64,000 bases of DNA from an uncultured Pseudomonadales bacterium (GCA_964457085.1 CAYWDM010000006.1:4302-68301); one strand, 5' to 3'; counted from the stretch's first letter, positions 24,327 through 61,957 are shown. Notes: generated by a model from the sequence alone, not told the origin. Numbers and translations: made by a program.

Positions 24327-24335
24327 CAAATAAAG

Positions 24336-24358
24336 AAACGGCTTTTGCCGTTTTTTTT
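24336..24358 (+). terminator. intrinsic terminator after tRNA-Pro
   Basis: AAACGGC-TTTT-GCCGTTT followed by T8. Confidence 0.7.
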
Positions 24359-24490
24359 ATTTGCCGAGAGATAGTTTGATGAAAACCTCTTTGGTTCCGC
24401 CGGAGAGTACAGAGTACCCTCCTAGTGCCCAATCAAGCGAAATCAATTTGCAACAAAATCATGAGCGTGATGAGGCTAATCCTGTCTCCC

Positions 24491-28155: not shown

Positions 28156-28240
28156 TGGAAGGATCGCATAGCGGTTTATTGCACAGGTCTTGAAAACCTG
28201 CGGCCTCACGGCCATCGCGGGTTCGAATCCCGCTCCTTCC
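28156..28240 (+). tRNA. tRNA-Ser (anticodon UGA)
   Basis: Acceptor GGAAGGA/TCCTTCC, anticodon stem CAGGT/ACCTG with loop CUUGAAA, long variable arm GCGGCCTCACGGCC, T-arm GCGGG-TTCGAAT-CCCGC, discriminator G. Confidence 0.85.
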
Positions 28241-28242
28241 GC

Positions 28243-28541
28243 ATCAGTCAGCATCCTTGCTAGTAAGCAAGGATTGATGAATGACGTGGAGGTGTGGTGA
28301 ATGAGAAATCGCTGGGTTCGTGACGGAGAGTGCAAAGCACCCTCCTAATGCATGCGAGCAAAGCGAGTCGTAAATCCCGCTCCTTCCGCATTGTTCGAAA
28401 ATCTCGGCTTGCCGAGTATTTGCGGACAACATGAAGTGGGATGAGAAGCAAGGTGCCTCGCCAAGCGAAAACAAAATCAATTGTAATCATGAGCCTGGAA
28501 AGGTGAATCCCGCCTACTACATCGACTGAAATCTCGGCTTG
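28243..28541 (+). repeat. two tandem degenerate repeat units downstream of tRNA-Ser(UGA), each ending in a copy of the tRNA 3' end (putative integration scars)
   Basis: AATCCCGCTCCTTCCGCA occurs at 28225-28242 (the tRNA) and again at 28373-28390. A degenerate third copy GAATCCCGCCTACTACA lies near 28506-28522. AAATCTCGGCTTGC occurs at 28399-28412 and 28526-28539. A perfect hairpin ATCCTTGCT-AGTA-AGCAAGGAT sits at 28252-28273. Confidence 0.6.
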
Positions 28542-28559
28542 CTAAACTACTCCAATTCC

Positions 28560-45256: not shown

Positions 45257-45291
45257 TCAAGCATTTTATCATCAGGCCAGACTCACCACAG

Positions 45292-46659: not shown

Positions 46660-48052
46660 TATTTCCTTTCGATTTCAGATAACTACGGATATTTCGATGC
46701 ACGGTGGCTGCAATTTCAGCTGATAAACCCAAATAATTTGTTGGGGATAGCTGTAATAATTGCTGTTTTATCTCATCTGAAATCTGTAACTGGGCAACAA
46801 ACTGATTTAGAATTTTTTTCGTGACTTTTTTTCCTTGTGTTTGCTCTTGCAGTTTTTGATATCCCAGCACATCACCATGCATGCGTAAAATAACCTGATA
46901 TGCTTCAGCAACTACCTCCCAGTGATCATTTAATTCTTGATTTACTTTTATGGTATCAACTGATATTTTCTGCAACCCTTTTATGAGTGAAGTGTAAGCT
47001 AAAACGCACTGTCCAATGGCAACTCCAAAATTGCGTTTTACAGTGCTATCTGAAAGGTCTCGTTGCAATCGAGAAATCGGCAATTTTTGAATAAAATGGA
47101 TCAGCATACTATTCGCCATTCCCAAATTGCCCTCGCTATTTTCAAAATCTATGGGATTAACCTTGTGCGGCATTGTCGATGATCCAACTTGGCCAGTTGC
47201 TAGTTTTTGAACCAAATATCCGTCACTAATGTAACGCCATGCATCCTGATTAAGGTCAAGTAAAATTCCATTTATCCGAATCAAACTACTAAATAATTGA
47301 CTGTAACTTTCTGGAGATAAAATCTGCGTTGCAATCACAGATGGTGCCAAACCTAATGAAGCAACAAATTCTTTGCTTATTTTTAGCCAATCAACATCTG
47401 GAAAAATGGTGAGGTGAGCATTAAAATTTCCAACTGCACCAGAAACCTTTCCTTCGATTTGTAACTGATCAAGTACTAATAATTCTTGAAGTAGACGCTG
47501 TGCAAAAACCGCGAATTCTTTACCAATGGTTGTAGGAACTGCTACCTGACCATGTGTCCGTGCCAGCATTGGCGTGTCTGCATAGTCATTGATAATTTTG
47601 CCGAGCGTTTTGAGAAGTAACTGAAGCATCGGAATAACAAGTTGTTCTTTTGCTTCCATCAACATTTGAGAATATGCAAGTGAATTAACATCCTCACTCG
47701 TTAAAGCGATATGAACATATGCTGCTAGTGGTGAATTTATTTTTTGCAGCTTTGCTGTTAAAAAATACTCAACTGCTTTAACATCGTGTCTAGTAATGAG
47801 TTCTATTTTTTTAACTTCTTCCGCATCAGTAGTACTGAAGTCATGCTGCAGTTGGAGTAAAAAGATTTCTTCATCTGAGGTAATTTTAGGAATCAATCGG
47901 TGTTTCGATAAAAAGAAAAGATACTGAATTTCAATTTTGACTCTATGGGTAATTAATGCAAACTCAGAAAAAATATTCGAAACTTCTGTTAGCTGTGTGT
48001 GATAGCGTCCATCCAAAGGAGATATTGCAGTTAGACGTGAGTCCGTTGCCAT
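46652..48052 (-). CDS. purB: adenylosuccinate lyase
   Basis: SPLDGRY N-terminal signature and fumarate-lyase fold. Start set at MATDSRL; the ORF track extends to 48130. Overlaps the purA start. Confidence 0.8.
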   Translation of the reverse strand: MATDSRLTAISPLDGRYHTQLTEVSNIFSEFALITHRVKIEIQYLFFLSKHRLIPKITSDEEIFLLQLQHDFSTTDAEEVKKIELITRHDVKAVEYFLTAKLQKINSPLAAYVHIALTSEDVNSLAYSQMLMEAKEQLVIPMLQLLLKTLGKIINDYADTPMLARTHGQVAVPTTIGKEFAVFAQRLLQELLVLDQLQIEGKVSGAVGNFNAHLTIFPDVDWLKISKEFVASLGLAPSVIATQILSPESYSQLFSSLIRINGILLDLNQDAWRYISDGYLVQKLATGQVGSSTMPHKVNPIDFENSEGNLGMANSMLIHFIQKLPISRLQRDLSDSTVKRNFGVAIGQCVLAYTSLIKGLQKISVDTIKVNQELNDHWEVVAEAYQVILRMHGDVLGYQKLQEQTQGKKVTKKILNQFVAQLQISDEIKQQLLQLSPTNYLGLSAEIAATVHRNIRSYLKSKGNND

Positions 48053-48137
48053 TAATCCAATTGTACAGCAATTTAGCCATTTGCAGAGAGAAAATTTGGA
48101 ACTGTTTAATTCTATTTCGTGTTTCTGCAACCAGCAT

Positions 48138-48848
48138 CTATCTCGGGTCTGTCATCCACACTGCAGTTTTTTTTAAAAAAAGATATTTTAAAAATGTAAC
48201 CAAATATGAGTTAGCACCCGCAAAAAAACCAAATCTGAATCTTCTTCCTGCAGCCAACACAGGTGTGTTGCTCAAAAAGATAATTTTCCCAATTTTACTT
48301 ACTTTGAATGATAGGTCGATATCTTCGATTGCATTTAAATCAGCACTGAATCCACCTGATTTTTTATAAGCCTCGTTGAAAATTGCAAAATTGAACCCGC
48401 TAAGCCAATAATGTCCAAAAATCACTCGATAAATTCTCATCCCTAAGGGCTGCAATACATTGACGATTTTGTTTGTGTTGGCAGTACAATCGTCAATTCT
48501 ACAGGTGCCAGTCACAGCAACGCCAATATTTTCAGTAAGTGCATTTGAAAGTGTTTCGACCCAATTTGAGGGAAGAATTGTGTCAGCATCAGTTGACAAT
48601 ATAATTTCGTCAGTTGAGTATTCAAAACCAGCTTTTCGTGCTGCTCCCCGTCCTTTTCGTTTCTCATAAAGAACCGTTATGTGTAAATTCTTTGAAAAAC
48701 TTCTAGCTTCTTTTACAGTGTCATCTGTAGAATTGTTGTCAACAACGATGATCCTAAAATTTTTGCCAGTCTGTTGTGCAACAAGGCTATTTAGACAATT
48801 ACCAATATTTTTCTCTTCATTGTAAGCAGGGATTACAATCGAAATCAT
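48138..48848 (-). CDS. glycosyltransferase family 2
   Basis: MISIVIPAYNEEKNIGNCLNSLVAQ...IIVVDNNSTDDT. Confidence 0.8.
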   Translation of the reverse strand: MISIVIPAYNEEKNIGNCLNSLVAQQTGKNFRIIVVDNNSTDDTVKEARSFSKNLHITVLYEKRKGRGAARKAGFEYSTDEIILSTDADTILPSNWVETLSNALTENIGVAVTGTCRIDDCTANTNKIVNVLQPLGMRIYRVIFGHYWLSGFNFAIFNEAYKKSGGFSADLNAIEDIDLSFKVSKIGKIIFLSNTPVLAAGRRFRFGFFAGANSYLVTFLKYLFLKKTAVWMTDPR

Positions 48849-48896
48849 AGATTAAAAATTGCTGTTTATTTACAAAGTTCTATTCTATACTTTGGT

Positions 48897-49961
48897 ATGG
48901 CTGAAAAAAAGATCACTGTTGATGTGTCACATGAAGTTTTTAAAGATAGGAAATCAAAAGACTTTTTTGATCGTCAATTCCCACTAAAAAGTGCTGAAGA
49001 AACACAAATTAAACTCAGGACAGAACTTGTGGAACAAGTATTTGCTTGGAATGAATCCCTGAATGTTGACTCTGATTTCGTACCCCCCAGTGATTTCACA
49101 GTTACTTGGATAGGAGTAAATAATTGGGATGAATTAAAAAATCAAAGTACTTGCCAAAATTGTAGTGCAGAAGTCAAATATGGAGAATCAAATTGTCAAT
49201 CATGCCTAACAGCAAAGCCACATTTTATTCTCACCATCAAAGAAACAGAGTCCACAAGACAATTGTTGAACAGTCCGATCGTAAATCAAAGCTCCATCCC
49301 AACAATTCTGCCTGAGGGATGTGCATACGATATTATTGGAGTTTCAAATCAAACAGAATTAAATAAATTTAGAAATTGTGTGTATTGTGGAGCTCCAGTT
49401 TTGTTTACTTTTCCTGCCTGCACTCACTGTGGAATGAGTAAACCATATGTGCGTCTCACAAATACTGATGATCAAAACTCATCAGCACCAACATGGAAAG
49501 TTGGTGACCTTAAAACAACTGTTAGCCAGGGCGATATGCCGGGATATTTTGAAGATGGAGAGGTTTCCGTCTCATCTGGATGCACGGCTGGAATATGCAA
49601 GGCCACCAAAGTTACTGTATCAGAAAATGCTTCAATCGTGGCTGCTAATGCCATAGAAGTTACCTTAAAAACGAACTCAAAAGCGCATGAAATAGCTGCG
49701 AGATATGTAACCATTCACGCGAATAGCACAGTTCATTCAGTGACAGTATATGACAGTGGCACCTTAATTCTAGACGAAAGCTCAAATATCGATGAATTAT
49801 TTTTAGGTGAAGGTGTGAAAATTGAAGTCAGAGGGATGCCAGAGTTAAGACTACTCCAAAAAATACTCAATGTCTTCCGAACCAGAAAAAAAGGTGTTAG
49901 AAGTGATGTTGCATGTGCACTGCCAAGAGGCATGGAAAAAAGATTGCAAGCAGGACAGTGA
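48897..49961 (+). CDS. hypothetical protein with two zinc-ribbon motifs and a repetitive beta-rich C-terminal region
   Basis: CQNCSAEVKYGESNCQSC and CVYCGAPVLFTFPACTHCG. C-terminal V/T/S-rich repeats may form a bactofilin-like beta-helix. Confidence 0.4.
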   Translation: MAEKKITVDVSHEVFKDRKSKDFFDRQFPLKSAEETQIKLRTELVEQVFAWNESLNVDSDFVPPSDFTVTWIGVNNWDELKNQSTCQNCSAEVKYGESNCQSCLTAKPHFILTIKETESTRQLLNSPIVNQSSIPTILPEGCAYDIIGVSNQTELNKFRNCVYCGAPVLFTFPACTHCGMSKPYVRLTNTDDQNSSAPTWKVGDLKTTVSQGDMPGYFEDGEVSVSSGCTAGICKATKVTVSENASIVAANAIEVTLKTNSKAHEIAARYVTIHANSTVHSVTVYDSGTLILDESSNIDELFLGEGVKIEVRGMPELRLLQKILNVFRTRKKGVRSDVACALPRGMEKRLQAGQ

Positions 49962-49987
49962 TTGTTATTCTCTCAGAGAGACCCAAT

Positions 49988-50956
49988 TTAAATCGAAAAT
50001 AGAATTCTTAGGATCATGGTGTGAGATAAATATATCTGATACGAGTTTTTTCCAAGAGATAGTAAAAACTGAGCGATATTTTTCGCAAACCTTTTTTCCT
50101 GAATAAACAAGTACAGTGCGAAGTAAAACAATGTGGCATACAACATAGTATCTACATGTGTGAATCGTAGTGCAGTAATTGGATTGATTCCATTCAACAT
50201 ATCGTTTCTTGCTCTATAAATTACAACCACCAAAAAAAACAGACAAAGAAGTTTTGTGACTAGAATACATTTTTTCCTAGATTGTATCCAGTGAATTATT
50301 CTTGAAGCATGCATGCCGAGAATAAAATAAAAAATCCAAGTGATACACCAAAAATATTGTTGTTGATCAGTAAACAAATATTTTGAAATAAGACTCGGTG
50401 GTGCAGTAGTGCTGTACAACATATATAGAAATATCTGAAAAATAAATGCTACTAGCAAACTAATCCAGGGAAATTTTTTAACTATCGAACTCACTATAGG
50501 AAACAATATATATAACTGAAAAATCATTGGCACAAAATACAAATGATAATCAGCCTTGCCCAGTAATAACTGTAGTAAAAATGATTTAGTTTTGAGTGGA
50601 TCTTGCCAATGTGGGTTAAATAAAAATATGAGATAACTTACAGCACTAATCAAAATGTATGCTGGCAGCAATTTTTTTGCCTGACTCCACCAAAATTCAA
50701 AATAATGAAGTTTTTTTTGTTGGTATTTTTCCCAAAAACCATACCCTGACAAAATTACAAATAGTGGTACTGAAAACCTGCCTATTTGGTCAATAATCAA
50801 TAATAGTTGCCAACTTGAAGTTTGCAAATCAAAACCATTGGGAATATTTGTCAGAACATGAGCTGTGACCACCGCGACAATGGCAATCCCGCGAAGCAAA
50901 GCATTTGTTTCAAGCACATAACTTGAGTGCGGCTCAACTTCATGCTGTTTTTTCAT
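49988..50956 (-). CDS. acyltransferase family 3 (membrane O-acyltransferase)
   Basis: LRGIAIVAVVTAHV, SVPLFVILSGYG and ten TM helices. Confidence 0.7.
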   Translation of the reverse strand: MKKQHEVEPHSSYVLETNALLRGIAIVAVVTAHVLTNIPNGFDLQTSSWQLLLIIDQIGRFSVPLFVILSGYGFWEKYQQKKLHYFEFWWSQAKKLLPAYILISAVSYLIFLFNPHWQDPLKTKSFLLQLLLGKADYHLYFVPMIFQLYILFPIVSSIVKKFPWISLLVAFIFQIFLYMLYSTTAPPSLISKYLFTDQQQYFWCITWIFYFILGMHASRIIHWIQSRKKCILVTKLLCLFFLVVVIYRARNDMLNGINPITALRFTHVDTMLYATLFYFALYLFIQEKRFAKNIAQFLLSLGKNSYQIYLSHTMILRILFSI

Positions 50957-50970
50957 AAGTGGCTAAAAAA

Positions 50971-51249
50971 TTAGACGGTTTTTCGCTTCTCAAGTTCTGC
51001 TAAAACCATATCCAGTGTAACACCGCGTGCTGCCAACATCACTAAAGTGTGAAACAACAAATCAGCAGTTTCAGAAACTAATCGTCGTTTGTTACTATTT
51101 TTAGCAGCAATCACCACTTCAACAGCTTCTTCACCAACTTTTTGAATAATTCGGTCGTCATTATCTCTGAAGAGCGAAGCAACATATGAATTATCTGGCA
51201 TGTTCTCTTTACGAGCAATGATTATTTTGTAGAGTGCTTGTAATGTCAT
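50971..51249 (-). CDS. hisE: phosphoribosyl-ATP pyrophosphatase
   Basis: 92 aa, [13 protein letters not shown]...[17 protein letters not shown]. Confidence 0.85.
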
Positions 51250-51575
51250 ATCTTCCGTTCAATTAATTTGGTATAAAAACAACTACGAGAGCCAGTGTGA
51301 CAAACTGCCACTCCCTGCAATTCAACTGTGACTAATACAGTATCGGCATCACAGTCTTGATACAACGAGAGAACTTTTAGCTGATTACCCGACTGTTCAC
51401 CCTTTAGCCAAAGTTTTTTTCGACTTCGACTCCAGAAATAAACAAAGCCAGTTTGCTGTGTTTTTTCGAGTGCCTGAGCGTTCATATATCCCAGCATCAA
51501 AACTTCACCAGTAGTTCCATCTTGAATAATGGCTGGCACCAATCCTGAATTTTTATTGAAATCAATTTTTTTCAT
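51246..51575 (-). CDS. hisI: phosphoribosyl-AMP cyclohydrolase
   Basis: GLVPAIIQD...[16 protein letters not shown]...CDADTVL...CHTG. Confidence 0.85.
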
Positions 51576-52332
51576 AGACGTTTCTATTTGGGATTTTTTT
51601 TAATTGCATATATTTTTTTAAATCAGAAATCGTCAACTCACCAAAGTGGAATAGTGAAGCAGCTAATGCACCGTCAGCGACTCCTTCTTCAAATACATCG
51701 GCAAAGTCTGTAATGCTTCCAGCACCTCCAGAAGCAATCACCGGGACAGTGACACTTTGAGAAATAATTCTAGTCAGCTCTAAATCAAATCCCTTCTTGG
51801 TGCCGTCAGCATCCATGCTAGTCAACAAAATCTCACCAGCTCCAAGTCCGACTCCTTCTTTTGCCCAGGATAGAGCGTTAAGCCCTGTTGCAGCAGTACC
51901 ACCATTAATCACTACCTCCCAACCAGTTTTATTTTTTTTAACATCGATCGCCAATACGATACATTGACTACCAAATACCCTTGCAGCTTCGGTAATGAGA
52001 CTGGGTTTTTTAACTGCTGCAGTATTGAGTGAAACCTTATCAGCACCAGCCAATAATACGGTTCTAATATCTTCAATTGAACTAATACCACCTCCGACTG
52101 TAAATGGAATAAAAATAGTTTCAGCAACTTTTTTAACCATCTCGATTATTGTTTTACGTCGATCATTAGTAGCGGTAATGTCTAGGAATACCAACTCGTC
52201 AGCACCTTGGTCATTGTAGAATTTTGCCAATTGCACCGGATCACCAGCATCCTGCAAATTCACAAAATTAACCCCTTTAACCACTCGGCCGTTAGCAATA
52301 TCAAGACAGGGAATAATTCGTTTAGTTAACAT
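51562..52332 (-). CDS. hisF: imidazole glycerol phosphate synthase cyclase subunit
   Basis: [15 protein letters not shown]...[10 protein letters not shown]. Confidence 0.9.
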
Positions 52333-53044
52333 TGTTGACCTCCTGAATTGAGATTTTGCCTTCTAATACTGCTTTGCCAATAATTACTCCTGCTACTTTG
52401 AGAACTGAGAGTGCAATGACATCTGCTTTTGAGGACACTCCACCAGCAACAATGAGTGGCACTGAAAGTAACGACTGTAACTTTTTAACCTCTTCAAAAT
52501 TGGGTTGAGTTAGTGTGCCGTCTCTACTCACATCAGTATAAATAAATGTTTTCACTCCCCATTTTTCTAGCTGTATAGCAGTTTCAAGTAAATCTTGATC
52601 ACTGTTTTCCAACCAACCACGTTTGGCTAATTTGCCATTTTTACTGTCGAGCGAAACAATAATCCTGTCACCGTATTTGTCTAGCATTTGTTTTATCAGT
52701 GATTCGTTCTCTAAAGCCACCGTGCCAATAATTACTTTTGTGTCTCCAATTTTTAAAAGCTTCTCGACACTAGCAAGAGACTGAATGCCGCCACCAACTT
52801 GAACAGGAATGGTAACCGCGGTAATGATTTTTTTTATGATGACTAGATTGATTGATCGACCAACTTTGGCACCATCAAGATCCACGATGTGTAGTGCTCT
52901 AGCTCCTGCAGTTTGCAAGCGTAGAGCCATTGCCACAGGATCTTGGCCATAGATTGTTTCCAAAGCATAATCACCTTGTTGTAAGCGGACACAATTGCCA
53001 GCTCTAATATCAATAGCGGGAATAACTAGCATAATAGCCTCCAA
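52322..53044 (-). CDS. hisA: ProFAR isomerase
   Basis: [15 protein letters not shown]...LHIVDLDGA. Confidence 0.85.
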
Positions 53045-53625
53045 AAGTTTTCTAATACCTGGAGACCTGCCTCACCACTTTTCTCTGGGTGAAACTGTAC
53101 TCCATAGATATTTTTTGACTCAATCACACTGCAAAAGTCTTGACCATAATTAGTTACGCCAGTAACGTTTTTGGTGTCAATCGGATTGCAGTAATATGAG
53201 TGTACAAAGTAAAAATACGAATTATTTGTAATACCCTGCAACAACTGCGAATTTAATGCATTGACTTGGTTCCAGCCGACTTGGGGCACCTTTAAATTAG
53301 TTTTCAATTTTTGAACCTCACCATTAATCAAATCGAGACAATTGACACCACCTTCTTCACTAAATGAAAAAAATAATTGCATCCCCAAACAAATTCCTAG
53401 TAATGGTTTACCACTAGCAACTTGCTCAGTTATCACAACATCAAGATTTCGCTGTCGCAGATTTTTCATACCTGCACCTGCGGCACCCACTCCTGGCAAA
53501 ATTAAACCTGTTGCCTGCTGAATATCGCCAGTTTGATTCGATATTTTGAAAGGAATGCTGAGTCGAGAAAGTGCATTTGCCACACTCGCCAAATTTCCCA
53601 ATCCATAATCAATAATTACTATCAT
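53026..53625 (-). CDS. hisH: imidazole glycerol phosphate synthase glutaminase subunit
   Basis: IVIIDYGLGNLASV, GICLGMQ catalytic Cys, HPEKS. Confidence 0.9.
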   Translation of the reverse strand: MIVIIDYGLGNLASVANALSRLSIPFKISNQTGDIQQATGLILPGVGAAGAGMKNLRQRNLDVVITEQVASGKPLLGICLGMQLFFSFSEEGGVNCLDLINGEVQKLKTNLKVPQVGWNQVNALNSQLLQGITNNSYFYFVHSYYCNPIDTKNVTGVTNYGQDFCSVIESKNIYGVQFHPEKSGEAGLQVLENFWRLLC

Positions 53626-54215
53626 AATGAACCCTTCGTCGATGGTATTTGTGTCAGTGCTCTCTGGTCATATTCACAAGCAGCTCGAATTGCTCGAGCC
53701 ATTGCTTTGAATATGCCTTCGATTTTGTGGTGATCATTGCGACCATTTTCAACCTTAATGAAAACATTGGCTTTGGCGTTTTGGGCAAAACCATCCCAAA
53801 AGTCGTAAACCAGCTCAGTGCTAAGATCTCCAACCTTGTCACGGTTAAAGTCACAATCGAGAGCGAAGGCATACCGTCCAGAAAAATCTATGGCTACCGT
53901 CACTAGTACCTCATCCATTGGCAATACAAAGAATCCATAACGATTAATGCCACGCTTCTCTCCAAGTGACTGCGCGAATGCCTGGCCTAAAACAATACCG
54001 ATATCTTCTACTGTGTGGTGCTCATCAATAAAAATATCTCCCTGAGCTACCAGTGCTAGATCAAATAAGCCGTGTTTGGCAAATAATTCCAGCATGTGTG
54101 ATAAAAAACCTACTGGCACAGTGATTTGTCGCTGTCCGGTTCCATCAACACTAAGTGATAACTCAATTTGAGTTTCAGTGGTAATGCGGGTAATTACGGC
54201 GGAACGTTTTTTCAT
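53622..54215 (-). CDS. hisB: imidazoleglycerol-phosphate dehydratase (monofunctional)
   Basis: RITTETQIELSL...DEHHTVEDIGI...AMARAIR. Confidence 0.9.
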   Translation of the reverse strand: MKKRSAVITRITTETQIELSLSVDGTGQRQITVPVGFLSHMLELFAKHGLFDLALVAQGDIFIDEHHTVEDIGIVLGQAFAQSLGEKRGINRYGFFVLPMDEVLVTVAIDFSGRYAFALDCDFNRDKVGDLSTELVYDFWDGFAQNAKANVFIKVENGRNDHHKIEGIFKAMARAIRAACEYDQRALTQIPSTKGSL

Positions 54216-56053
54216 AACAGGAGTCTTTCGATTTCGTTGGTGCCTGCAACTTCAAACTCAGCTGCACTACCAGTGCCGACAAAGATACATGGCATCTGAG
54301 CTGACTTCGCAGCCAATACATCATTAATACTGTCGCCAACATAGATTGGCCGATTACTATCAAGCAGTGCAGCAGCTTGTAATAATGGATCTGGAAATGG
54401 TTTTTCTCGCAAAGTGTCCTCTTTACCAACTACAAATTTTTCTTGAATTAGTGCCGGTGATATCTTTAGATTTCTCAGTGCAAACAATGCCTCAAACTTT
54501 GGTCTCCCCGTAGCAACTCCAACCTTGTATTTATTAGCAATCTTTTTCAGGACTGCTAAATCTATCAACAGTATTTCATTAGCAATCAGTCCCGATTGCT
54601 CACTAATTGGAGCTAGTCGTTGATATATCTCAAAAAATAACTCAGAGCCTAAATAAAAACTCTGAAAAATATCTTTTATTTTTTGGTACTCTGAACTATT
54701 TTTTATTTGATCACTAAGAGCTGTGATTTTTTTCTTAAATTGAGTACGATAGATTTTTTTTGAGAGTAATTGTATGAGTGCAAACGACAGATCCCAATCA
54801 TTATTGAATCCTGGAATCAACTTCATGGACTCAACATCTTCGGCGGCTATAACTGTGTGCAAACCATAATTATTTTGTAGCACGTACTCAACCGTTAATT
54901 TGATTGCCTGGCGATATGACTGCGAGACATCTATCAGTACACCATCCATATCAAAAATAACGCTATCTAACTTTGGTTTAGAATATTCCCTGAGTGCTGC
55001 CAACAACTTGTCATTCTGGCGACGAGTGCCGATACTGATGCGAATTGCACTGTAAGCTGTGTAGTAGCGAACCACAATTTTTCGCTTCTCCAGAATTTCC
55101 TGTAACTGCGAGAGTCGATCCATCACAATAAACAGCGAGTTTGCTGCTGATGGATACACCGTAAAGCAGGACAATTTTTCAAGTTCATTATTTAAACGAG
55201 TTCGCTCTGCAACAATTGTCGCCAGCATTTTTTCTCTCCAAGTGGTATCAGAGAGAGCAGCGATTCCTGCCTCATTTGCAGCCAAGTTAACATTGTATGG
55301 TGGTTTAATCTTAAACAGCTGCTGCACAAAAAACTCATTCATCACCCCATATCCCAATCGCAAACCTGCCAATCCCGCCCATTTACTCAGAGTTCGTAGC
55401 ACGATTAAGTTGGGATACTGCTCCAGTAGTGAGATTACACTCTTACCAGAAAACTCAAAATAGGCTTCGTCCACAATGACCAGCTTACCGGTTTTTAATA
55501 ACGTAATGATTTCTTCCTCGCCACTGACAGTCCCGGTAGGATTATTTGGCGAACAAATTACGATTGCCTTGGTACGAGCTGTGACTGCTTTTCTAATCCC
55601 TATCAGATCCAATGAAAAATCAGCATTTCTGGCAACCGCAACTACCACACCACGATTCAACTGTACCGACACACAGTACATGCCAAATGTTGGCGGACAG
55701 TTGATTACTTCGTCGCCATTATTCAGGATCAATCGGAATAGTAAATCCAACAGTTCGTCTGACCCTGAACCAACCATGATATTTTTAACAGCGGCACCAG
55801 TATATTCAGCCAGTGCAAAGCGTAACTGCATATATTCAGGATCAGGATAAAAATTATATTTTGGTTGTCCTCGTAGTGCTTTCTGCACTAATGGTGAGTA
55901 GCCAAATTGATTTTCACCCGCGTCAAGTTTAATAACATCTTCAGAATTTTGACCAAACTTCTCTGCCAAATCCCACAGCGATGCTACCGGCAGATAGGCC
56001 GACATCGCTGCGATATCCTTTCGGATCATATTTTGTATAGTATTTTTTTTCAT
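54212..56053 (-). CDS. hisC: histidinol-phosphate aminotransferase fused to a C-terminal HAD-family phosphatase
   Basis: N-terminal aminotransferase class I/II with PLP-Lys region LRTLSKWAGLAGLRLGY. C-terminal HAD motifs FDMDGVLID (I), VATGRP (II) and VGDSINDVLAAK (IV). Start set at MKKNTIQ. Confidence 0.8.
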   Translation of the reverse strand: MKKNTIQNMIRKDIAAMSAYLPVASLWDLAEKFGQNSEDVIKLDAGENQFGYSPLVQKALRGQPKYNFYPDPEYMQLRFALAEYTGAAVKNIMVGSGSDELLDLLFRLILNNGDEVINCPPTFGMYCVSVQLNRGVVVAVARNADFSLDLIGIRKAVTARTKAIVICSPNNPTGTVSGEEEIITLLKTGKLVIVDEAYFEFSGKSVISLLEQYPNLIVLRTLSKWAGLAGLRLGYGVMNEFFVQQLFKIKPPYNVNLAANEAGIAALSDTTWREKMLATIVAERTRLNNELEKLSCFTVYPSAANSLFIVMDRLSQLQEILEKRKIVVRYYTAYSAIRISIGTRRQNDKLLAALREYSKPKLDSVIFDMDGVLIDVSQSYRQAIKLTVEYVLQNNYGLHTVIAAEDVESMKLIPGFNNDWDLSFALIQLLSKKIYRTQFKKKITALSDQIKNSSEYQKIKDIFQSFYLGSELFFEIYQRLAPISEQSGLIANEILLIDLAVLKKIANKYKVGVATGRPKFEALFALRNLKISPALIQEKFVVGKEDTLREKPFPDPLLQAAALLDSNRPIYVGDSINDVLAAKSAQMPCIFVGTGSAAEFEVAGTNEIERLLL

Positions 56054-56060
56054 ATTTTTT

Positions 56061-57353
56061 TTAATTTCTAAATCGAATCTCGCAGGCAACTTTGTGAGCG
56101 GGTAGCTCCTCTATCTCAGCTAAGGTTTCGATGGTTTTTCGTAAATTATTTAGTCCTGTTTTGCTACAGCGCTGTACCTGCATCCATTTGCCATAACAAT
56201 CAACTCCTAGAGGTGGGTACATCTTAGCCATGCCCCCAGTTGGTAGTACGTGGTTGGCACCTGTTGCATAATCCCCTGCTGATTTGGCTGTCCAATTTCC
56301 TAAGAAAATTGAACCTGCATTTACAATCTCACTGACCACTGCTTCAGGATCTTTAGTCATGATCTCTAAGTGCTCAGGAGCGTATTCATTGGTAAAAGCA
56401 ATTGCTTCTTCCAGTGAATCAACTACAGCTACTAAACCAAACTTAACTAATGATTCAGTTAGACGCTCGGCAGTTGCCAACAGTGGCACTTGTTTCTCGA
56501 TTTCAGCAATTGTTTGCTCAGCAATCTCCAGCGAAGTAGTGACTAAAACACATGCTGAATCATTACCGTGTTCACCATCTGCCAAGAGATCGGCAGCAAT
56601 GAACGCTGGGTTAGCAGTCTCATCAGCGATTACAAATACTTCAGAAGGACCAGCTGGCATATCGATACTAATTGATTCAAGTGCCAGCATCTTTGCAGCA
56701 GTTACCGCAGCACCACCAGCACCAAAGATCTTAGAGACTTTTGGTACAGATTCTGTGCCATAGGTCATAGCTGCGATTGCCAGTGGTCCACCCAGTTTAA
56801 AAATCTCGGTCAATCCAATCATGTCAGCAGCCACCAATGTTGGTGCTGGAATCTGACCAGTGCCTCGTGCCGGTGAACAGAGCACAATCTGTGTACAACC
56901 AGCAATCTGTGCTGGAATCGCACTCATCAATACTGATGAAGGATAAATAGCTTTGCCACCAGGAATATATAATCCAACTTTCTCGATTGCTCGCCACTCA
57001 CGCCAAACTGCCACTCCAACTTCTGGTCGCACTACAGTATCCAGTTTGGTGGGTAACTGTGCGGAGTGCACGGCAGTAATATTGCGAATCATTTGACGAA
57101 TTGACTCAATAAAGTCTTGATTAACTTCTCGGTAAGCCTGATTAATCTCCTCAGAAGTAACTTTAATTGAAGTGAAATTCTGACCTGCAAAACGCTTGGC
57201 AGCATCAGCATATAGTGCTCTGTCGCCATCCTGTTTCACCGACTCCATGATTTGTTTCACTTGAGGCATGATTTGAGAATCATCGCCTGCACTGCGAGCC
57301 ATAATTCTTTGATAATCACTGGCCGATAAATCTTTAAGTTTAATAACTTGCAT
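56061..57353 (-). CDS. hisD: histidinol dehydrogenase
   Basis: Conserved HisD segments (CSPARGTGQ, GEHGNDS, DYATGANHVLPTGG). Confidence 0.9.
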   Translation of the reverse strand: MQVIKLKDLSASDYQRIMARSAGDDSQIMPQVKQIMESVKQDGDRALYADAAKRFAGQNFTSIKVTSEEINQAYREVNQDFIESIRQMIRNITAVHSAQLPTKLDTVVRPEVGVAVWREWRAIEKVGLYIPGGKAIYPSSVLMSAIPAQIAGCTQIVLCSPARGTGQIPAPTLVAADMIGLTEIFKLGGPLAIAAMTYGTESVPKVSKIFGAGGAAVTAAKMLALESISIDMPAGPSEVFVIADETANPAFIAADLLADGEHGNDSACVLVTTSLEIAEQTIAEIEKQVPLLATAERLTESLVKFGLVAVVDSLEEAIAFTNEYAPEHLEIMTKDPEAVVSEIVNAGSIFLGNWTAKSAGDYATGANHVLPTGGMAKMYPPLGVDCYGKWMQVQRCSKTGLNNLRKTIETLAEIEELPAHKVACEIRFRN

Positions 57354-57362
57354 ATAATTCCT

Positions 57363-58244
57363 TTACAAAATAATTTTTTCGATTGGTAAGACAATAATTC
57401 CAGTGGCACCAGCAGCTTTGAGTTTTTCAATGGTTTCCCAAAACACATCCTCTTTAATTACAGTTTGGATCGAGACCCAACCGTCCTGAGCTAGTGGTGA
57501 AACTGTCGGCGATTTAAGTCCGGGAGTAATTTTCTGCAAATTTGACAAAATATCTTCTGGAGCATTCATCATCACGTATTTATAGGTTTTGGCTGAAAGT
57601 ACGGCTTTGAAACGAACCAACAATCTTTTTATTAATCGCAGTTTGGCTGCATCCACCATGCTGGTGCCATTGGCAATACAAACCGCTTCACAGTCATAGA
57701 TTTTTGCCAGTTGTCGCAAATCATTAAGTGCCATAGTGCTGCCAGTAGCAGTGAGGTCAGCGATGGCGTCAGCAACTCCCAACATCGGTGCTATCTCCAC
57801 CGAACCGCTAATCTTGATTGTCTCCACCGACATGCCACTTTTCTTAAAAAAATTCTTGGTTGAGTTCGGGTAGGAAGTGGCAATCGTTTTTCCGTCTAAA
57901 TCTACTAATTCAACGACAGGCGATTCTTTGGGGACCGCCAATGTCAGAGCACAAAATCCATACCGCAGATTTAAAAGTTTCTTGACGTTTTTTGGTCGTT
58001 CTTCGTACAGTAAATTTTGACCCACAATACCCATATCCACACTACCAGAAGCTACATAATCGGGAATATCGTCGTCACGCATGTAGATAATTTCTAAAGG
58101 AAAATTGCGACAAGTAGAAAACAACTTAGATTTATAACTGGCAAATTCCAGTCCAGCACTTCGCAAAAAACTAATGGTTTCGTCAGTCAGACGACCACTT
58201 TTTTGAATAGCTAATTTTAGATTTTTTTGATTCATGTTTTGCAT
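57363..58244 (-). CDS. hisG: ATP phosphoribosyltransferase, long form with regulatory domain
   Basis: LKLAIQKSGRL...DIPDYVASGSVDMGIVG. About 290 aa, so it includes the C-terminal regulatory domain. Start at ATG 58244 or 58235; the ORF track uses TTG at 58256. Confidence 0.85.
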   Translation of the reverse strand: MQNMNQKNLKLAIQKSGRLTDETISFLRSAGLEFASYKSKLFSTCRNFPLEIIYMRDDDIPDYVASGSVDMGIVGQNLLYEERPKNVKKLLNLRYGFCALTLAVPKESPVVELVDLDGKTIATSYPNSTKNFFKKSGMSVETIKISGSVEIAPMLGVADAIADLTATGSTMALNDLRQLAKIYDCEAVCIANGTSMVDAAKLRLIKRLLVRFKAVLSAKTYKYVMMNAPEDILSNLQKITPGLKSPTVSPLAQDGWVSIQTVIKEDVFWETIEKLKAAGATGIIVLPIEKIIL

Positions 58245-58259
58245 AATTACTTTCAATTT

Positions 58260-58332
58260 GGGTGGCTGAGGGGAGTTGCACCCCCGGCCTTCTCCTCCAC
58301 AAGGAGATGCTCTACGGTTGAGCTACAGCCAC
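58260..58332 (-). tRNA. tRNA-His (anticodon GUG)-like gene with G-1 and C73, non-canonical D- and T-loops
   Basis: Manual fold of minus-strand GGTGGCTGTAGCTCAACCGTAGAGCATCTCCTTGTGGAGGAGAAGGCCGGGGGTGCAACTCCCCTCAGCCACC. Eight-bp acceptor including the His-specific G-1:C73 pair, anticodon loop UUGUGGA. D-loop AACCGUA lacks GG; T-loop is UGCAACU (G at position 55). Confidence 0.6.
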
Positions 58333-58354
58333 CATCTTTTAAACGAGTGGTTAA

Positions 58355-58422
58355 TAAAAAACCTCCCGTTCATTTCTCACCAACACCAGCAAAACCAGTG
58401 GTTGGTAAAAAAGGAACGAGAG
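58355..58422 (-). terminator. second leader hairpin: 10-bp stem (CCUCUCGUUC/GAACGGGAGG) with an internal nested hairpin, followed by U6
   Basis: Seen in the minus-strand transcript between the T-box-like terminator and the tRNA-His-like gene. Confidence 0.4.
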
Positions 58423-58426
58423 GCAA

Positions 58427-58610
58427 TAAAAAAGGACCTCCCGCGGTCCCATCCTTCATTCTCTGAGGTATTTCTCCTCAAAGCTCTCAGGCCGGCTCCG
58501 CACGTGCGACATCGGCTGTTGTATTTAACGGTTCAACTTCCGTAAGACATTTTGGCCTTCAGCTCATGGATCGTGACTCCACTCAAACGCTTTATTGGTA
58601 TTAACTTGTA
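58427..58610 (-). promoter_or_regulatory. candidate T-box riboswitch leader (His-specific) with terminator
   Basis: Minus-strand RNA has AAGGA-UGGGACCGCGG (58440-58450), matching the T-box core UGGNACCGCGG, with N=G complementary to the tRNA-His discriminator C73. Terminator GGACC-GCGGGA-GGUCC plus U6 at 58427-58448. CAC codon within GUCGCACGUGCG at 58503-58505. Confidence 0.45.
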
Positions 58611-58616
58611 TGCGAG

Positions 58617-58645
58617 TATTTTAATTGAGGAAGTAACAAATGTCA
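58617..58645 (-). promoter_or_regulatory. sigma-70 promoter of the his leader (TTGACA-17-TAAAAT)
   Basis: -35 at 58640-58645 and -10 at 58617-58622 on the minus strand, with 17-nt spacing. Confidence 0.6.
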
Positions 58646-58666
58646 ACATGTTAACGCGTTAACATG
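58645..58666. promoter_or_regulatory. perfect 22-bp palindrome ACATGTTAACGCGTTAACATGT abutting the -35 (candidate operator)
   Basis: Perfect inverted repeat between the yerC-like gene stop and the his promoter. Confidence 0.5.
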
Positions 58667-58701
58667 TATTTATAGAGGAATATTGATGAATTAATGTAAT
58701 A

Positions 58702-59004
58702 TTATGTGCGCTTCGAATCACCGTACAGTCTCTGCAAAATAATCGAATAGCCATGCCATGATTCTTTATACAGCCACTGAGCCACCCGAGTTACAGTGGT
58801 GGTGCTTGTACCGACTTTCTCTGCAATCTCTAAGTAAGAAAGTTTAGTTGACCACAATAGTTTAGCGATGTGAAAGCGACGAGAAAACTCTTCAATTTCT
58901 GCTGGAGTCAACAAATCACGAAGAAAGCCAGTGACTTCTTTCGGGCCACACAGTGTGGAGATGGCGGCGATGAGTTCTTTGTCAGATTTAGTGGGATAAG
59001 ACAT
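58702..59004 (-). CDS. yerC: YerC/YecD (TrpR-related) family DNA-binding protein
   Basis: 100 aa with LSYLEIAEKVGTSTTTVTRV HTH and overall TrpR_YerC pattern. Confidence 0.6.
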   Translation of the reverse strand: MSYPTKSDKELIAAISTLCGPKEVTGFLRDLLTPAEIEEFSRRFHIAKLLWSTKLSYLEIAEKVGTSTTTVTRVAQWLYKESWHGYSIILQRLYGDSKRT

Positions 59005-59020
59005 AGGTGTAGTTTAGCAC

Positions 59021-59506
59021 TCAGATAAAATCTGAATTAATTTTTTTTATGAAAGTAAAAAATGTTTTTAAAATTGCTATTTCTGGATCACTGGGATTTT
59101 TATTCGCTGTGACTATGGTGCTCACCTCAGTTTCACTAATCCAACGATAGGAATCAATTTCACTTTCCTGAATTTTAATATCATCTAATGGTGTGGTCGG
59201 AGTAGCTAAGTAAATATTCTCGATCACCGTTTTGCCATTATAAACATATGTAAAAGAGTCAAACAAATTACCAACCAAAATTTCAAGATTAAGTTCTTCT
59301 CTAATCTCTCTGACCAAACCAGCTTGATCAGTTTCACCTGATTCAATGTGTCCACCGGGCAATTCATAGACTCCGGGAAGAAATGAGGACTGCAATGATC
59401 GTTTGGTCATCAAACACTGATGTGTGTTAGCAACTTTTCGGTAGATCAAGGCACAAGCAGTAGGGATCATTTCCATATATATCCAGTTACTTACTAAACG
59501 CCACAT
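59021..59506 (-). CDS. NUDIX hydrolase
   Basis: Nudix box GGHIESGETDQAGLVREIREELNLEI. Confidence 0.8.
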   Translation of the reverse strand: MWRLVSNWIYMEMIPTACALIYRKVANTHQCLMTKRSLQSSFLPGVYELPGGHIESGETDQAGLVREIREELNLEILVGNLFDSFTYVYNGKTVIENIYLATPTTPLDDIKIQESEIDSYRWISETEVSTIVTANKNPSDPEIAILKTFFTFIKKINSDFI

Positions 59507-60299
59507 CCAGAATCATCATCACCACGAATCCTAACATGGCACCAATTGTAGAGAAATCACTCTCACCTTCTGTTTGTGATTCTGGAATGATTTGTTCTAT
59601 CGTGACGTAGATCATGGCACCTGCTGCAAATGCCAACGCATAGGGCAAAATCTCTCGCATATTGATGACCAGCAAGGCACCACAAACTGCAGCTATTGGT
59701 TCCACAATAGCGGAAGCTTGACCATACATAAAGCTCTGCCATTTACTTTTGCCTTCTCGACGAAATGGTGTTGAGACAGCAAACCCTTCTGGAAAGTTTT
59801 GGATACCAATGCCGATGGCTAAAGCGATAGCTCCAGCCAAGGTCGCACCTGGTATGCCTGCACCCACAGCTCCAAAAGCCACACCAACTGCCAAACCTTC
59901 TGGAATATTATGTAGCGTAATTGAAGTAAACAGCAAAATAGTCTTATGCCAACTAGTAGGAATTCCTTCTTTTTTTGCCAGAGGCATACCTAAGTGCAAG
60001 TGTGGCACTAGCTTATCTAGCAACCAAAGAAAAGCTCCACCCATAATAAAACCAATTGCCGGCGAAATCCAAGCTTGCTGACCTAACTCATGGCTGAGGC
60101 TGATTGCAGGTTGCAGTAGTGACCAAAAACTAGCGGCCAACATGATCCCTGCAGTAAATCCCAACAAGGCATTAAAAATCTTTTTATTTCCTGAGGGCAA
60201 AATAAAAATGCCGGCTGCACCCAAAGCCGTTAGACCCCAGGTAAAGATAGTGGCCAGCAAGGCCTGAAGAACTGGATTGAGTGTGGAGAAAAAATGCAT
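59487..60299 (-). CDS. ZIP-family metal transporter (second copy)
   Basis: HNIPEGLAVGVAFGAVGAG and eight TM helices. Confidence 0.7.
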   Translation of the reverse strand: MHFFSTLNPVLQALLATIFTWGLTALGAAGIFILPSGNKKIFNALLGFTAGIMLAASFWSLLQPAISLSHELGQQAWISPAIGFIMGGAFLWLLDKLVPHLHLGMPLAKKEGIPTSWHKTILLFTSITLHNIPEGLAVGVAFGAVGAGIPGATLAGAIALAIGIGIQNFPEGFAVSTPFRREGKSKWQSFMYGQASAIVEPIAAVCGALLVINMREILPYALAFAAGAMIYVTIEQIIPESQTEGESDFSTIGAMLGFVVMMILDVAFSK

Positions 60300-60376
60300 T
60301 GTAGCTTTGATTGTAAGCTCAGCAGCCAGGATTGTGATTGGGAAATGAGTACACCAACGAACAGTTTCTAGATGTG

Positions 60377-61234
60377 CTACTCCGCAATCTTTTTCCTCAG
60401 CATTAGGTAGACGCGACCGTGATCGCGTGAAAAAGATGCTATCAGCTCATAGCCATCTTTTTCCCAATTAAAAATGTGATGCTGGGTATTTATGACAAAT
60501 TTTTGTTCGTTTTGATACAGGTCTTGGTACTTTTTTTCTAAAATGGCAAATTCATCTACATCATCGGTACCGTCTTTATTCTGATCACCGCTATCTGCGA
60601 CAGTGAAGTATTTGGTGAACTCCAGTTCACCACCTTTTTGATTCAATAATCCAAATGACTTCTCCTGTTCAGTTAGTAGTGGGTCGGTGGTAAATAGTTC
60701 AGGATAGTCAGCGAAATAACTATTGATCATTTCGTCGTCATAAGTTGGTAGATGCACCTGCACGTATCCTGTATCCATCGAACCGTAGTGAGTTGCAGAG
60801 ACACGATACCTACCGATGGTGCCCTTGACTGTTTCGGGATTGCTGAATTCCTCGATAACTTCTTTTTCGAAGAGATCTTGATAATATTTGAGAAACTCGA
60901 CTTGAGTGGCTTCAGATTCAAAAACCACATTGAAGTAGGCAAAATTAGTGTCGTCGAACATCGACAGATCTTTGGGATTAGTATTGACGAAGATTTTATT
61001 GGAGCTGACTTTCTTAAGTTTATACAATGGGACATCTTTGATTGGATAGCCGTCTAAGAGGAAAGTGTTTTGCTGAGTTTTGGCAGTTGGGTCGGTTTTA
61101 TTGGCTTGACCGGAGGTTTTTTGATCTGTATTTTTTTGGGTAGTCTTGCCCATGCCCAGTCGTGATCCTAGAAAAACTAAGGCGATGAGTATTAAGAAAG
61201 CGATAGCTATTAGTAAGGGTTTTTTATTTTTCAT
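60377..61234 (-). CDS. hypothetical secreted protein or lipoprotein
   Basis: N-terminal signal anchor, Thr/Lys-rich linker, no known domain. Confidence 0.4.
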   Translation of the reverse strand: MKNKKPLLIAIAFLILIALVFLGSRLGMGKTTQKNTDQKTSGQANKTDPTAKTQQNTFLLDGYPIKDVPLYKLKKVSSNKIFVNTNPKDLSMFDDTNFAYFNVVFESEATQVEFLKYYQDLFEKEVIEEFSNPETVKGTIGRYRVSATHYGSMDTGYVQVHLPTYDDEMINSYFADYPELFTTDPLLTEQEKSFGLLNQKGGELEFTKYFTVADSGDQNKDGTDDVDEFAILEKKYQDLYQNEQKFVINTQHHIFNWEKDGYELIASFSRDHGRVYLMLRKKIAE

Positions 61235-61343
61235 GGTGGTGATTAGTTAGTTTCTGGATCAGGTAAATCCAAATCAGATCATTATGAAGCTACTCCAGAT
61301 ATAGTAGAAATTATACCCTCAGTCAGTGCAAAATTGCTCACAA

Positions 61344-61562
61344 CTACTCATACCTCAATGCATCAAGTGCACTAATCTTAGTGGCGCGACTTGCGGGATA
61401 AATACCAGTCAAAACACCAACCAATAATGATAATACAAAAATAAAGGTCACAAAGCTCATTGGCAAATATGCCACATCAATAAATCCAAATCCATGGTGA
61501 CACATTTTTTCGGAGTTATCTAGAGGAAATTCTCCATTTTTACAGATCGATTTGAAAACCAA
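61344..61562 (-). pseudogene. remnant of an FtsX/MacB-family ABC permease (C-terminal fragment only)
   Basis: Encodes only ...FVLSLLVGVLTGIYPASRATKISALDALRYE, the characteristic C-terminal TM4 and tail of FtsX-like permeases. No upstream coding continuation. Confidence 0.55.
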
Positions 61563-61599
61563 ACTTAATATCTCATGTAACCATTTCAGTATATTTTTT

Positions 61600-61870
61600 G
61601 CTTTTCATATGTGGAAGTGGTGGCCACTTTGCGGCATTAGGCGTGAGCTTCGCTCTCGCCGGCGGGGTCAAATAACTCCCAACCCCAATCAACTCATAAA
61701 AAAATCCCGCCTACAGCGGGTTTTCTTGTACTTGCGGAAGTGGTGGGGTTCACCTTTCCACGCTCATACACAATAAATTAAATTTTCGTATTCGCTTGGC
61801 GAGGTACCTTGCTTTCTCACCCACTCTCATAAGTACAAAAAAGCCCGCCTACAGCGGGTTTTCTTGTACT
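61600..61870 (-). repeat. two tandem repeat units downstream of tRNA-Ser(GGA), each ending in a copy of the tRNA 3' end plus a terminator hairpin
   Basis: CCCGCCTACAGCGGGTTTTCTTGTACTTGCGGAAGTGGTGGGGTTC at 61706-61751 duplicates 61846-61889. A degenerate third copy GTGGAAGTGGTGGCC lies near 61603-61620. Confidence 0.6.
61838..61870 (-). terminator. intrinsic terminator after tRNA-Ser(GGA)
   Basis: CCCGCUGUAGGCGGG followed by U6 on the minus strand. Confidence 0.7.
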
Positions 61871-61872
61871 TG

Positions 61873-61957
61873 CGGAAGTGGTGGGGTTCGAACCCACGAA
61901 GCCCTTTCGAGCTCACGCTTTCCAGGCGTGTGCAATAGACCACTATGCGACACTTCC
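61873..61957 (-). tRNA. tRNA-Ser (anticodon GGA)
   Basis: Acceptor GGAAGTG/CACTTCC, anticodon stem CACGC/GCGTG with loop CUGGAAA, long variable arm, T-arm GTGGG-TTCGAAC-CCCAC, discriminator G. Confidence 0.85.

Follow-up and report, generated by a model that had tools for sequence, protein, structure and literature searches.

Behind three of the four tRNA genes that ARAGORN finds in a 64,000-nucleotide stretch filed under an uncultured Pseudomonadales bacterium (GCA_964457085.1 CAYWDM010000006.1:4302-68301; this whole stretch is called the window, and all coordinates are counted from its first letter) lie five short, gene-less units of one sequence family. They follow tRNA-Ser(GGA), tRNA-Ser(UGA) and tRNA-Pro(GGG), and every unit ends in a displaced copy of the 3' end of the tRNA gene beside which it stands. 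We lean towards the view that one family of integrative elements has inserted repeatedly and site-specifically into the 3' part of tRNA genes, that the units are the footprints it left, and that these persist and probably spread as mini-elements without genes. The evidence lies in the architecture of the arrays, the kinship of the units across loci, their presence and absence in related genomes, and a hairpin that has kept its pairing while its sequence changed.

Unit arrays behind the two tRNA-Ser genes

The 3' end of tRNA-Ser(GGA) reads ...GTGGGTTC GAACCCCACCACTTCCGCA and is followed by a terminator with a T-run. A 53-nt repeat, R, extends from GAACCCC in the tRNA past this terminator, and blastn places its second copy 138 nt downstream with 52 of 53 positions identical (98%); the first 18 nt of copy 1 (61872-61889) lie inside the tRNA gene itself. 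A preceding inspection of the DNA by a model, which we call the sequence-only reading, had described a duplicated 46-nt block about 140 nt off. The duplication is there, the 46 nt being only the uninterrupted identical run within R, and so is the degenerate third copy that it mentioned, but merely as the 14-nt fragment CCACCACTTCCACA, without a terminator. The two copies of R and this oldest fragment enclose two unit interiors, B1 of type 1 next to the tRNA and B2 of type 2 beyond it (Table 1). The duplication is not an assembly artefact: the window sequence is also represented in Logan unitigs of run SRR12261225, two independent ones of which end exactly k-1 = 30 nt into the 46-nt run, one on each side, as happens in a de Bruijn graph when a genuine repeat has two different contexts on its left and two on its right. 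Short-read unitigs of this genome break at or just past tRNA-Ser genes at the end of L147 and at the start of L081, both of which repeat R explains, and a relative's unitig breaks at or just past a tRNA-Ser at the start of L155, where the cause is a guess. Identical 46-nt repeats thus have the practical effect of breaking short-read assemblies at these tRNA genes, and such loci are likely under-assembled in metagenomes.

The array behind tRNA-Ser(UGA) is built in the same manner, with a type-2-like unit, A1, next to the tRNA and a type-1 unit, A2, beyond it. The B1 side of the first array (61739-61830, minus strand) aligns with 28431-28518 (plus strand) at 81% identity over 94 columns, with E ~1e-13 against the whole window. 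The resemblance of about 85% over about 100 nt reported earlier is therefore real, at these somewhat different figures, and it extends far past the 18-20 nt derived from the tRNA genes, so that the claim of homologous interiors holds. The statement that the 3' end of the local tRNA closes each unit also proves correct, as seen from a 19/19-nt copy and a decayed one at tRNA-Ser(UGA), from CCACCACTTCCACA at tRNA-Ser(GGA) and from AATCCTGTCTCCCC at tRNA-Pro. Distal displaced fragments are more decayed than proximal ones.

One unit family at three tRNA genes

The kinship of the type-2 units is less visible to plain sequence comparison, as blastn yields for this second type only 28 nt at 79% identity (E = 0.22), and a sequence-only hidden Markov model (HMM) built from the units of the tRNA-Ser(GGA) locus misses both A1 and the unit P1 behind tRNA-Pro. 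A covariance model (CM), R1, was trained only on B2 and its counterparts in two relatives, with the hairpin structure included, and both strands of the 64 kb were scanned with it. A1 ranks second (28325-28351, E = 1.4e-3) and P1 third (24387-24440, E = 0.027 in a full-model alignment), and the remaining matches in the window all have E values of at least 1. A second unit type common to both tRNA-Ser loci, as the sequence-only reading had it, is thus upheld by the covariance model and weak by blastn.

P1 joins the two types. It belongs to neither training set, and the type-2 HMM matches its head (E = 1e-4) and the type-1 HMM its tail (E = 6e-3). Since P1 matches both HMMs, and since nhmmer and CM cross-matches connect all unit types, we conclude that there is one family at three loci. 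The two element families said to have visited both tRNA-Ser genes are indeed shared between them, but they are two variants of a single family, found at three or more tRNA genes. The unit is short, has defined ends and lacks coding capacity, and it occurs in five copies at the three window loci and in six on related contigs (those on L148 and L149 being the same one). The inserts hold no open reading frame (ORF) of any size that is consistent across copies. No promoter-like site was found inside the units, all of which sit downstream of intrinsic terminators. Rfam 15 returned at gathering score only the tRNA model, further matches over the units at E <= 10 falling far below that score.

Relatives and the swapped order of the units

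Related contigs were reached via the proteins that flank the tRNA genes, which are 50-70% identical between the genomes compared. At tRNA-Ser(GGA), L148/L149 and L150 carry one type-2 unit each, 86% and 79% identical to B2, and these end in CCACCGCTTCCGC, which is their own tRNA sequence, as against CCACCACTTCC in the window. At tRNA-Ser(UGA), L152 and L153 have one type-1 unit each, with 77-80% identity to A2. The one in L152 closes with 18 nt that copy the end of its own tRNA perfectly (AATCCCGCCCCTTCCGCA), and the one in L153 is missing its tail and has a decayed fragment. A further family member lies behind tRNA-Pro in L152 (13044-13165, minus strand, run SRR8925812), with a perfect 16-nt copy of the tRNA end, CCTGTCTCTCCGACAT. 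In all, the succession of intact tRNA, insert and copy of the tRNA's own 3' end is seen at five tRNA loci in relatives. Sites without a unit are found in L151 at tRNA-Ser(GGA), in L154 at tRNA-Ser(UGA), and in L154, L155, L001 and L002 at tRNA-Pro.

These relatives explain why the order of the two types is inverted between the tRNA-Ser loci, an observation of the sequence-only reading that stands, because they carry only type 1 at tRNA-Ser(UGA) and only type 2 at tRNA-Ser(GGA). A2 and B2 are thus the old and shared units, and A1 and B1 are additions of the present lineage on the tRNA-proximal side. The terminators tell a similar story at tRNA-Ser(UGA). The ancestral one follows the tRNA directly in L152 and L153, but in the window it comes after the displaced fragment of A1, and a new hairpin has taken its place behind the tRNA. 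An insert that carried a 3' end and a flank of its own would produce this shift.

The origin of B1 is less straightforward. Among the four type-1 sequences compared, B1 shares derived states with A2 (AGTGGG, ATGAGC, AGGTGAA) against the orthologues of A2, which suggests that the source of the copy resembled A2 and already had the small size. As B1 groups with A2 but is flanked by repeats of the tRNA-Ser(GGA) type, an interior of about 85 nt appears to have moved without its flanks. The plain picture of an element that visited both genes does not explain B1.

Probable constraint on the units

Unit interiors are 76-90% identical between orthologues in aligned columns, figures to be taken as upper estimates from a lenient alignment (77-86% by blastn), whereas identity at third codon positions in the flanking genes is 0.36-0.46, near saturation. 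The type-2 units and P1 share a structure, hairpin 1, made of 4 bp, one unpaired position (A.C or A.A), another 4 bp and a three-base loop, followed by TA[AG]TG. Over five sequences, 39 of 40 cells are paired and four pairs have changed on both sides, giving a covariation score of 0.575 compared with 0.249 in shuffles, none of which reached 0.575 (0/500); when the partner strand was slid as a control, pairing was 30-48%. With sequences that are few and related, we take this covariation as good but not conclusive evidence of constraint. The tRNA-Pro unit of L152 has the stem GGCA-A-GGG...CCC-A-TGCC around a 34-nt loop, then TAATCC, so that the outer stem and the A.A mismatch are kept. The small hairpin CTCGCC-AAG-CGA, which the sequence-only reading took to be retained in both copies, did not hold up, since it is broken in the L152 orthologue (CCCACCAAGCGAA).

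On the tRNA strand, the 705 nt of unit DNA contain the motif ATGA[AG] (ATGAR) 11 times compared with 1.6 expected, and the antisense strand contains it not once, although a Poisson value would overstate the significance because the copies share a common descent. A small ORF conserved from an ATGA start was considered and is ruled out by frame-shifting indels between A2, B1 and the units of L152 and L153. We also looked for a copy of the 5' half of the T-arm inside the units, which would point to insertion into the T-loop of the displaced fragment; only the L148 unit (TGGGTTTGAA) and A1 (ATCGCTGGGTTCG) are suggestive, and by a rough estimate, as opposed to a computed test, this fails correction for about ten units.

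The tRNA genes and their surroundings

Table 1. Features of the three unit loci and of neighboring genes in the window
Feature	Coordinates	Strand	Evidence and remarks
tRNA-Pro(GGG), intact	24253-24327	+	ARAGORN; own terminator 24336-24358
Unit P1 interior, 119 nt; type-2 head and type-1 tail (CAAGCGAAATCAATT...ATCATGAGCGTG)	24359-24477	+	two HMMs, CM R1
Hairpin 1 of P1: GGAG-A-GTAC AGA GTAC-C-CTCC, then TAGTGCC	24402-24422	+	
Displaced tRNA-Pro 3' fragment AATCCTGTCTCCCC	24478-24491	+	
tRNA-Ser(UGA), intact	28157-28242	+	ARAGORN, Rfam
Unit A1, type-2-like	28243-28372	+	interior 28276-28372; CM R1; absent in L152, L153
New hairpin directly after tRNA-Ser(UGA), in place of the ancestral terminator	28252-28276	+	
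Hairpin 1 of A1: GGAG-A-GTGC AAA GCAC-C-CTCC, then TAATGC and GCAAAGCG	28325-28345	+	
Displaced tRNA-Ser(UGA) 3' end	28373-28391	+	19/19 identical to 28226-28244
Ancestral-type terminator CTCGGCTTGCCGAG	28403-28416	+	directly after the tRNA in L152, L153
Unit A2 interior, type 1	28430-28505	+	orthologue of the single units in L152, L153; nhmmer with relatives-only model E = 1.3e-9; blastn 77-80%
Oldest, decayed tRNA-Ser(UGA) 3' fragment AATCCCGCCTACTACA	28506-28521	+	keeps the CCCGCC state of the relatives' tRNA
Decayed terminator copy GAAATCTCGGCTTGC	28528-28542	+	
tRNA-His	58260-58332	-	ARAGORN
72-codon ORF, C-terminal end only of an FtsX-type permease, ends ...GIYPASRATKISALDALRYE	61344-61562	-	Pfam FtsX E = 3.6e-3, profile positions 87-119 of 120
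Oldest displaced tRNA-Ser(GGA) 3' fragment CCACCACTTCCACA	61610-61623	-	last 14 nt of the tRNA, one mismatch
Unit B2 interior, type 2, 74 nt	61624-61697	-	CM R1 82 bits; 86% / 79% to L148 / L150 units
Hairpin 1 of B2: GGCG-A-GAGC GAA GCTC-A-CGCC, then TAATGC and GCAAAGTGG	61640-61660	-	
Repeat R copy 2, displaced tRNA 3' part and terminator (61720-61706)	61699-61751	-	blastn
Unit B1 interior, type 1, 85 nt; holds GTGGGTGAGAAAGCAAGGTACCTCGCCAAGCGAA, tail TATGAGCGTGGAAAGGT	61752-61836	-	HMM from relatives only E = 1.8e-8
Repeat R copy 1: GAACCCC (3' half of T-loop), acceptor 3' strand, terminator with T-run	61837-61889	-	blastn; terminator 61858-61844
tRNA-Ser(GGA), intact	61872-61957	-	ARAGORN; Rfam tRNA model 57 bits

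The window has a G+C content of 41%, and many of its ORFs have no Pfam match. Its RecA comes closest, with 76-81% identity, to those of two metagenome-assembled genomes (MAGs) that bear the label Patescibacteria group bacterium; RecA being too conserved, the search gave these two Patescibacteria relatives only. We treat the window and the related contigs as patescibacterial. Patescibacteria have tiny genomes and few recognised mobile elements.

Several features adjoin the unit loci. The truncated FtsX-type gene abuts the array behind tRNA-Ser(GGA), and gene calling on the Logan sequence likewise gives a 72-aa product. From these units a lineage-specific block of about 16-18 kb (~43400-61600) extends to genes for a 621-aa protein, ZIP, GNAT, GT2 and DUF4012. 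It contains purA, purB, an operon of hisG, D, C, B, H, A and F, tRNA-His, a Trp-repressor-like gene, a NUDIX gene and a second, distant ZIP paralogue (23% identical), and its counterpart in L148 is about 2.5 kb with other genes. The block shows no shift in G+C. Amino-acid biosynthesis operons are unusual in Patescibacteria. At tRNA-His, no unit of the family is present, and hisG begins about 15 nt past the tRNA. About 250 nt of non-coding DNA (58256-58640, minus strand) precede this tRNA, with two terminator-like hairpins, GGGACCGCGGGAGGTCC and GAACGGGAGG, each followed by a T-run; Rfam has no match in this stretch, which may be a leader or an attenuator. Next to the tRNA-Pro unit lies a gene resembling 2'-5' RNA ligase or cyclic phosphodiesterase (24491-25024, minus strand), where L155 instead has PIG-L directly past the tRNA terminator.

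Proposed serial integration and its alternatives

If the units stem from integration, the insertion point would lie between the T-loop and the 3' strand of the acceptor stem, and each event would put new DNA between the body of the tRNA and its original 3' end. The incoming DNA would bring a replacement 3' end and a terminator, so that the tRNA stays intact, and the old 3' end would be displaced downstream as a fragment. Later events would insert beside the tRNA, making the distal fragments the older and more decayed ones. What each insertion would leave is a gene-less remnant consisting of a terminator, 74-119 nt of family-specific DNA and the fragment. The family-specific DNA, with its repeated ATGAR motifs and a hairpin that appears constrained in structure, would probably be DNA from the attachment-site (att) arms of the element. 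Finally, the mini-units would have been propagated as non-autonomous elements by a recombinase encoded elsewhere, and would not be independent products of deletion. That all units are gene-less and of similar size, and that B1 repeats the internal structure of A2, suggests that the small form itself was propagated. The recombinase, the position of the crossover and the mobility of the mini-form are parts of the scheme that we infer. The interpretation given by the sequence-only reading is right in its broad lines, with the corrections made above.

Several results weigh against this explanation. Among about 50 ORFs of the window, which include nearly all of those of at least 150 aa, none has a Pfam match to an integrase or recombinase. 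The parental element that the sequence-only reading had proposed to seek in metagenomes did not come to light there, as one scan with the type-1 pattern gave 65 chance matches only; of five pattern scans of IMG/VR, four had no match and one, with a degenerate hairpin pattern, had six chance matches, two of which are terminator-like hairpins; and blastn of the units against phage and plasmid collections returned nothing. With neither a parental element nor an integrase in hand, "element" denotes something that we infer. An inverted repeat between tail and displaced fragment, considered as a recombinase core or an acceptor-like minihelix, can be drawn for several units and is no better than with shuffled tails (Fisher p = 0.12-0.37), and a single compensatory change in it (AAGTGG/CCACTT here, AAGCGG/CCGCTT in L148) is anecdotal only. 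The sample is about ten units from only five or six genomes. A further difficulty is B1. The two copies of R at tRNA-Ser(GGA) are 98% identical through the terminator even though the interior between them derives from the tRNA-Ser(UGA) lineage. A circle excised from the latter locus would carry a 3' end and a terminator of tRNA-Ser(UGA) type, so that simple conservative recombination in the T-loop fails for B1 without later gene conversion or some other copying. Three possibilities are later homogenisation of the flanks, movement of the interior with duplication of the target, and a contribution of replication template switching.

A bolder version of the preferred explanation holds that the units are a living family of att-only mini-elements of about 100 nt, without genes, copied between tRNA genes of Patescibacteria by a recombinase supplied in trans, with the centrally mismatched hairpin as recognition element and with target duplications running from the T-loop to a variable point 13-53 nt downstream. 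We put this forward tentatively, as a conjecture with less in its favor than serial integration in general.

An alternative is that the units are inert scars, that is, remnants left by random deletion of a multi-kilobase prophage or island at the tRNA, never mobile as such and conserved only because they were acquired recently. Such scars would have the same att-type architecture; presence among relatives is patchy, the L153 unit is tail-less with a decayed fragment, the fragments of A2 and B2 are decayed as well, and similar mini-inserts exist in unrelated bacteria. Small genomes, moreover, are expected to purge element genes. Yet all of the roughly ten units are gene-less, with interiors of about 45-120 nt and no gene fragment in any of them, and B1, a later gain, has the internal structure of A2 and of the L152 unit, for which two deletions would need identical endpoints. 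Inert scars also accord poorly with compensatory changes that keep hairpin 1 paired and with orthologous units far more conserved than synonymous sites. We thus consider inert scars rather unlikely.

Could the units instead be a structured non-coding RNA of the host, transcribed with or after the tRNA, whose tRNA-like 3' end serves processing or recognition by a protein? Hairpin 1 covaries, the units are conserved between genomes whose flanking proteins have diverged as far as stated above, their orientation is always that of the tRNA, and single units have fold z-scores between +0.2 and -2.8. A host function is harder to reconcile with units that are placed behind intrinsic terminators with no promoter-like site of their own, match no Rfam family, are missing from several relatives and truncated in L153, and vary in copy number and order. 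The type-1 units have no maintained hairpin, the one proposed being broken in L152, and an RNA function does not account for the 3' end of the local tRNA that closes every unit. This makes the RNA explanation improbable.

We find it more doubtful still that no dedicated element was involved, the units having arisen through duplication in place, template switching during replication or ectopic gene conversion from one tRNA locus to another, with the T-loop (GGTTCGAAYCC) and CTTCCGCA as microhomology. The tRNA-Ser(GGA) array does fit, in that both copies of R are local and near-identical while the interior comes from another locus, and template switching that left after the terminator and re-entered at the T-loop would yield this structure; a duplication including flank is also known from L029 (described below). 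However, at least five separate events at three tRNA species would all have had to involve the same family, position and orientation, there is little microhomology between the tRNA-Pro and tRNA-Ser loci, and the insert at tRNA-Ser(UGA) brought a new flank without duplicating the local one. That the units are decayed tandem tRNA pseudogenes, as the 138-nt period (tRNA of 86 nt plus spacer) and the resemblance of GCCTGGAAAGGTGA in A2 to the anticodon arm of tRNA-Ser(GGA) might suggest, is hardly credible, given that local alignment of the interiors with the four tRNAs against 500 shuffles gave one p = 0.03 in 28 tests and nothing significant otherwise, that neither ARAGORN nor the Rfam tRNA model detects anything in the units, and that units at different tRNAs resemble one another and not their own tRNAs.

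Serial integration, as the explanation we prefer, has to be seen against the background frequency of such structures. Three of 35 tRNAs from unrelated loci are accompanied, at no more than 400 nt, by a 13-nt copy of their 3' end. One of these is a tandem tRNA-Gly, and the other two are gene-less mini-inserts of about 170-250 nt behind tRNA-Ser(GCU) in MAGs of Gammaproteobacteria (L029, 16496-16690; L040, 14806-15066), each ending in AATCCCTCTCTCTCCGCCA, the 3' end of the tRNA. The L029 duplication is 66 nt long and includes 47 nt of downstream flank. Homology of these mini-inserts to the present units is not significant. Small att-bounded inserts are thus not unique to this lineage, which makes the architecture less novel and an overlooked general class more possible.

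If the units are scars of integration, several tRNA genes here would be recurrent entry points for foreign DNA, of which the 16-18 kb block with the histidine operon after tRNA-Ser(GGA) may be a sign. Were the mini-units mobile, they would be to tRNA-targeting integrative elements what miniature inverted-repeat transposable elements are to transposons, and they would offer a compact, natural substrate on which to define the cis requirements of a recombinase. Island-finding tools, which demand an integrase and kilobase size, would filter such a class out.

Comparison with known systems

Integron cassette arrays and their attC sites offer an analogy only. In both, units enter at the proximal end, and a hairpin with an unpaired position is conserved in structure and not in sequence. 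Unlike integrons, the present loci have no IntI, attI or ORF cassette, the type-1 units have no hairpin, and the repeats are derived from tRNA.

Another parallel is found in the cis-mobilizable elements (CIMEs), att-flanked derivatives of integrative and conjugative elements that lack the recombination and transfer genes, are kilobases long and still carry genes, and whose mobilisation in trans has been shown experimentally (PMC5704250). Our units resemble them in being non-autonomous, att-bounded and arranged in tandem at one site, and we propose mobilisation in trans for them as well. They differ from CIMEs in having no genes, and trans-mobilisation is here a proposal from sequence.

Prochlorococcus tycheposons integrate serially at one tRNA and push older elements outward, and the island is left strewn with partial tRNAs and degenerate elements (bioRxiv 10.1101/2020.12.28.424599). 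As at these hot spots, newcomers in the window stand beside the tRNA, partial tRNAs mark old events, and a variable block of genes lies past the tRNA-Ser(GGA) units (43.4-61.6 kb here, ~2.5 kb in L148). Unlike tycheposons, our loci have no tyrosine recombinase, replication module or cargo between the repeats, and the units, which share homology among themselves, are smaller by two orders of magnitude.

The islands and prophages that tyrosine integrases insert into tRNA genes share with the units an intact tRNA followed downstream by a direct repeat of its 3' part that starts in the T-loop or T-stem, an insert that supplies a new 3' end and flank (as at tRNA-Ser(UGA)), and empty sites in relatives. 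In the Islander definition, a regenerated tRNA and a displaced 3' fragment mark the ends of an island. The units depart from such islands in being about 105-165 bp long and gene-less, with no integrase found, in occurring as one family at three tRNA species, and in having an interior that seems to move without its flanking repeat. A displaced tRNA 3' end is the usual scar of tRNA-targeting integrative elements, and what seems unusual here is the tiny size, the conserved hairpin and the apparent copying between tRNA genes as small units. We regard the units as a new sequence family and as a small and possibly mobile form of a well-known type of feature.

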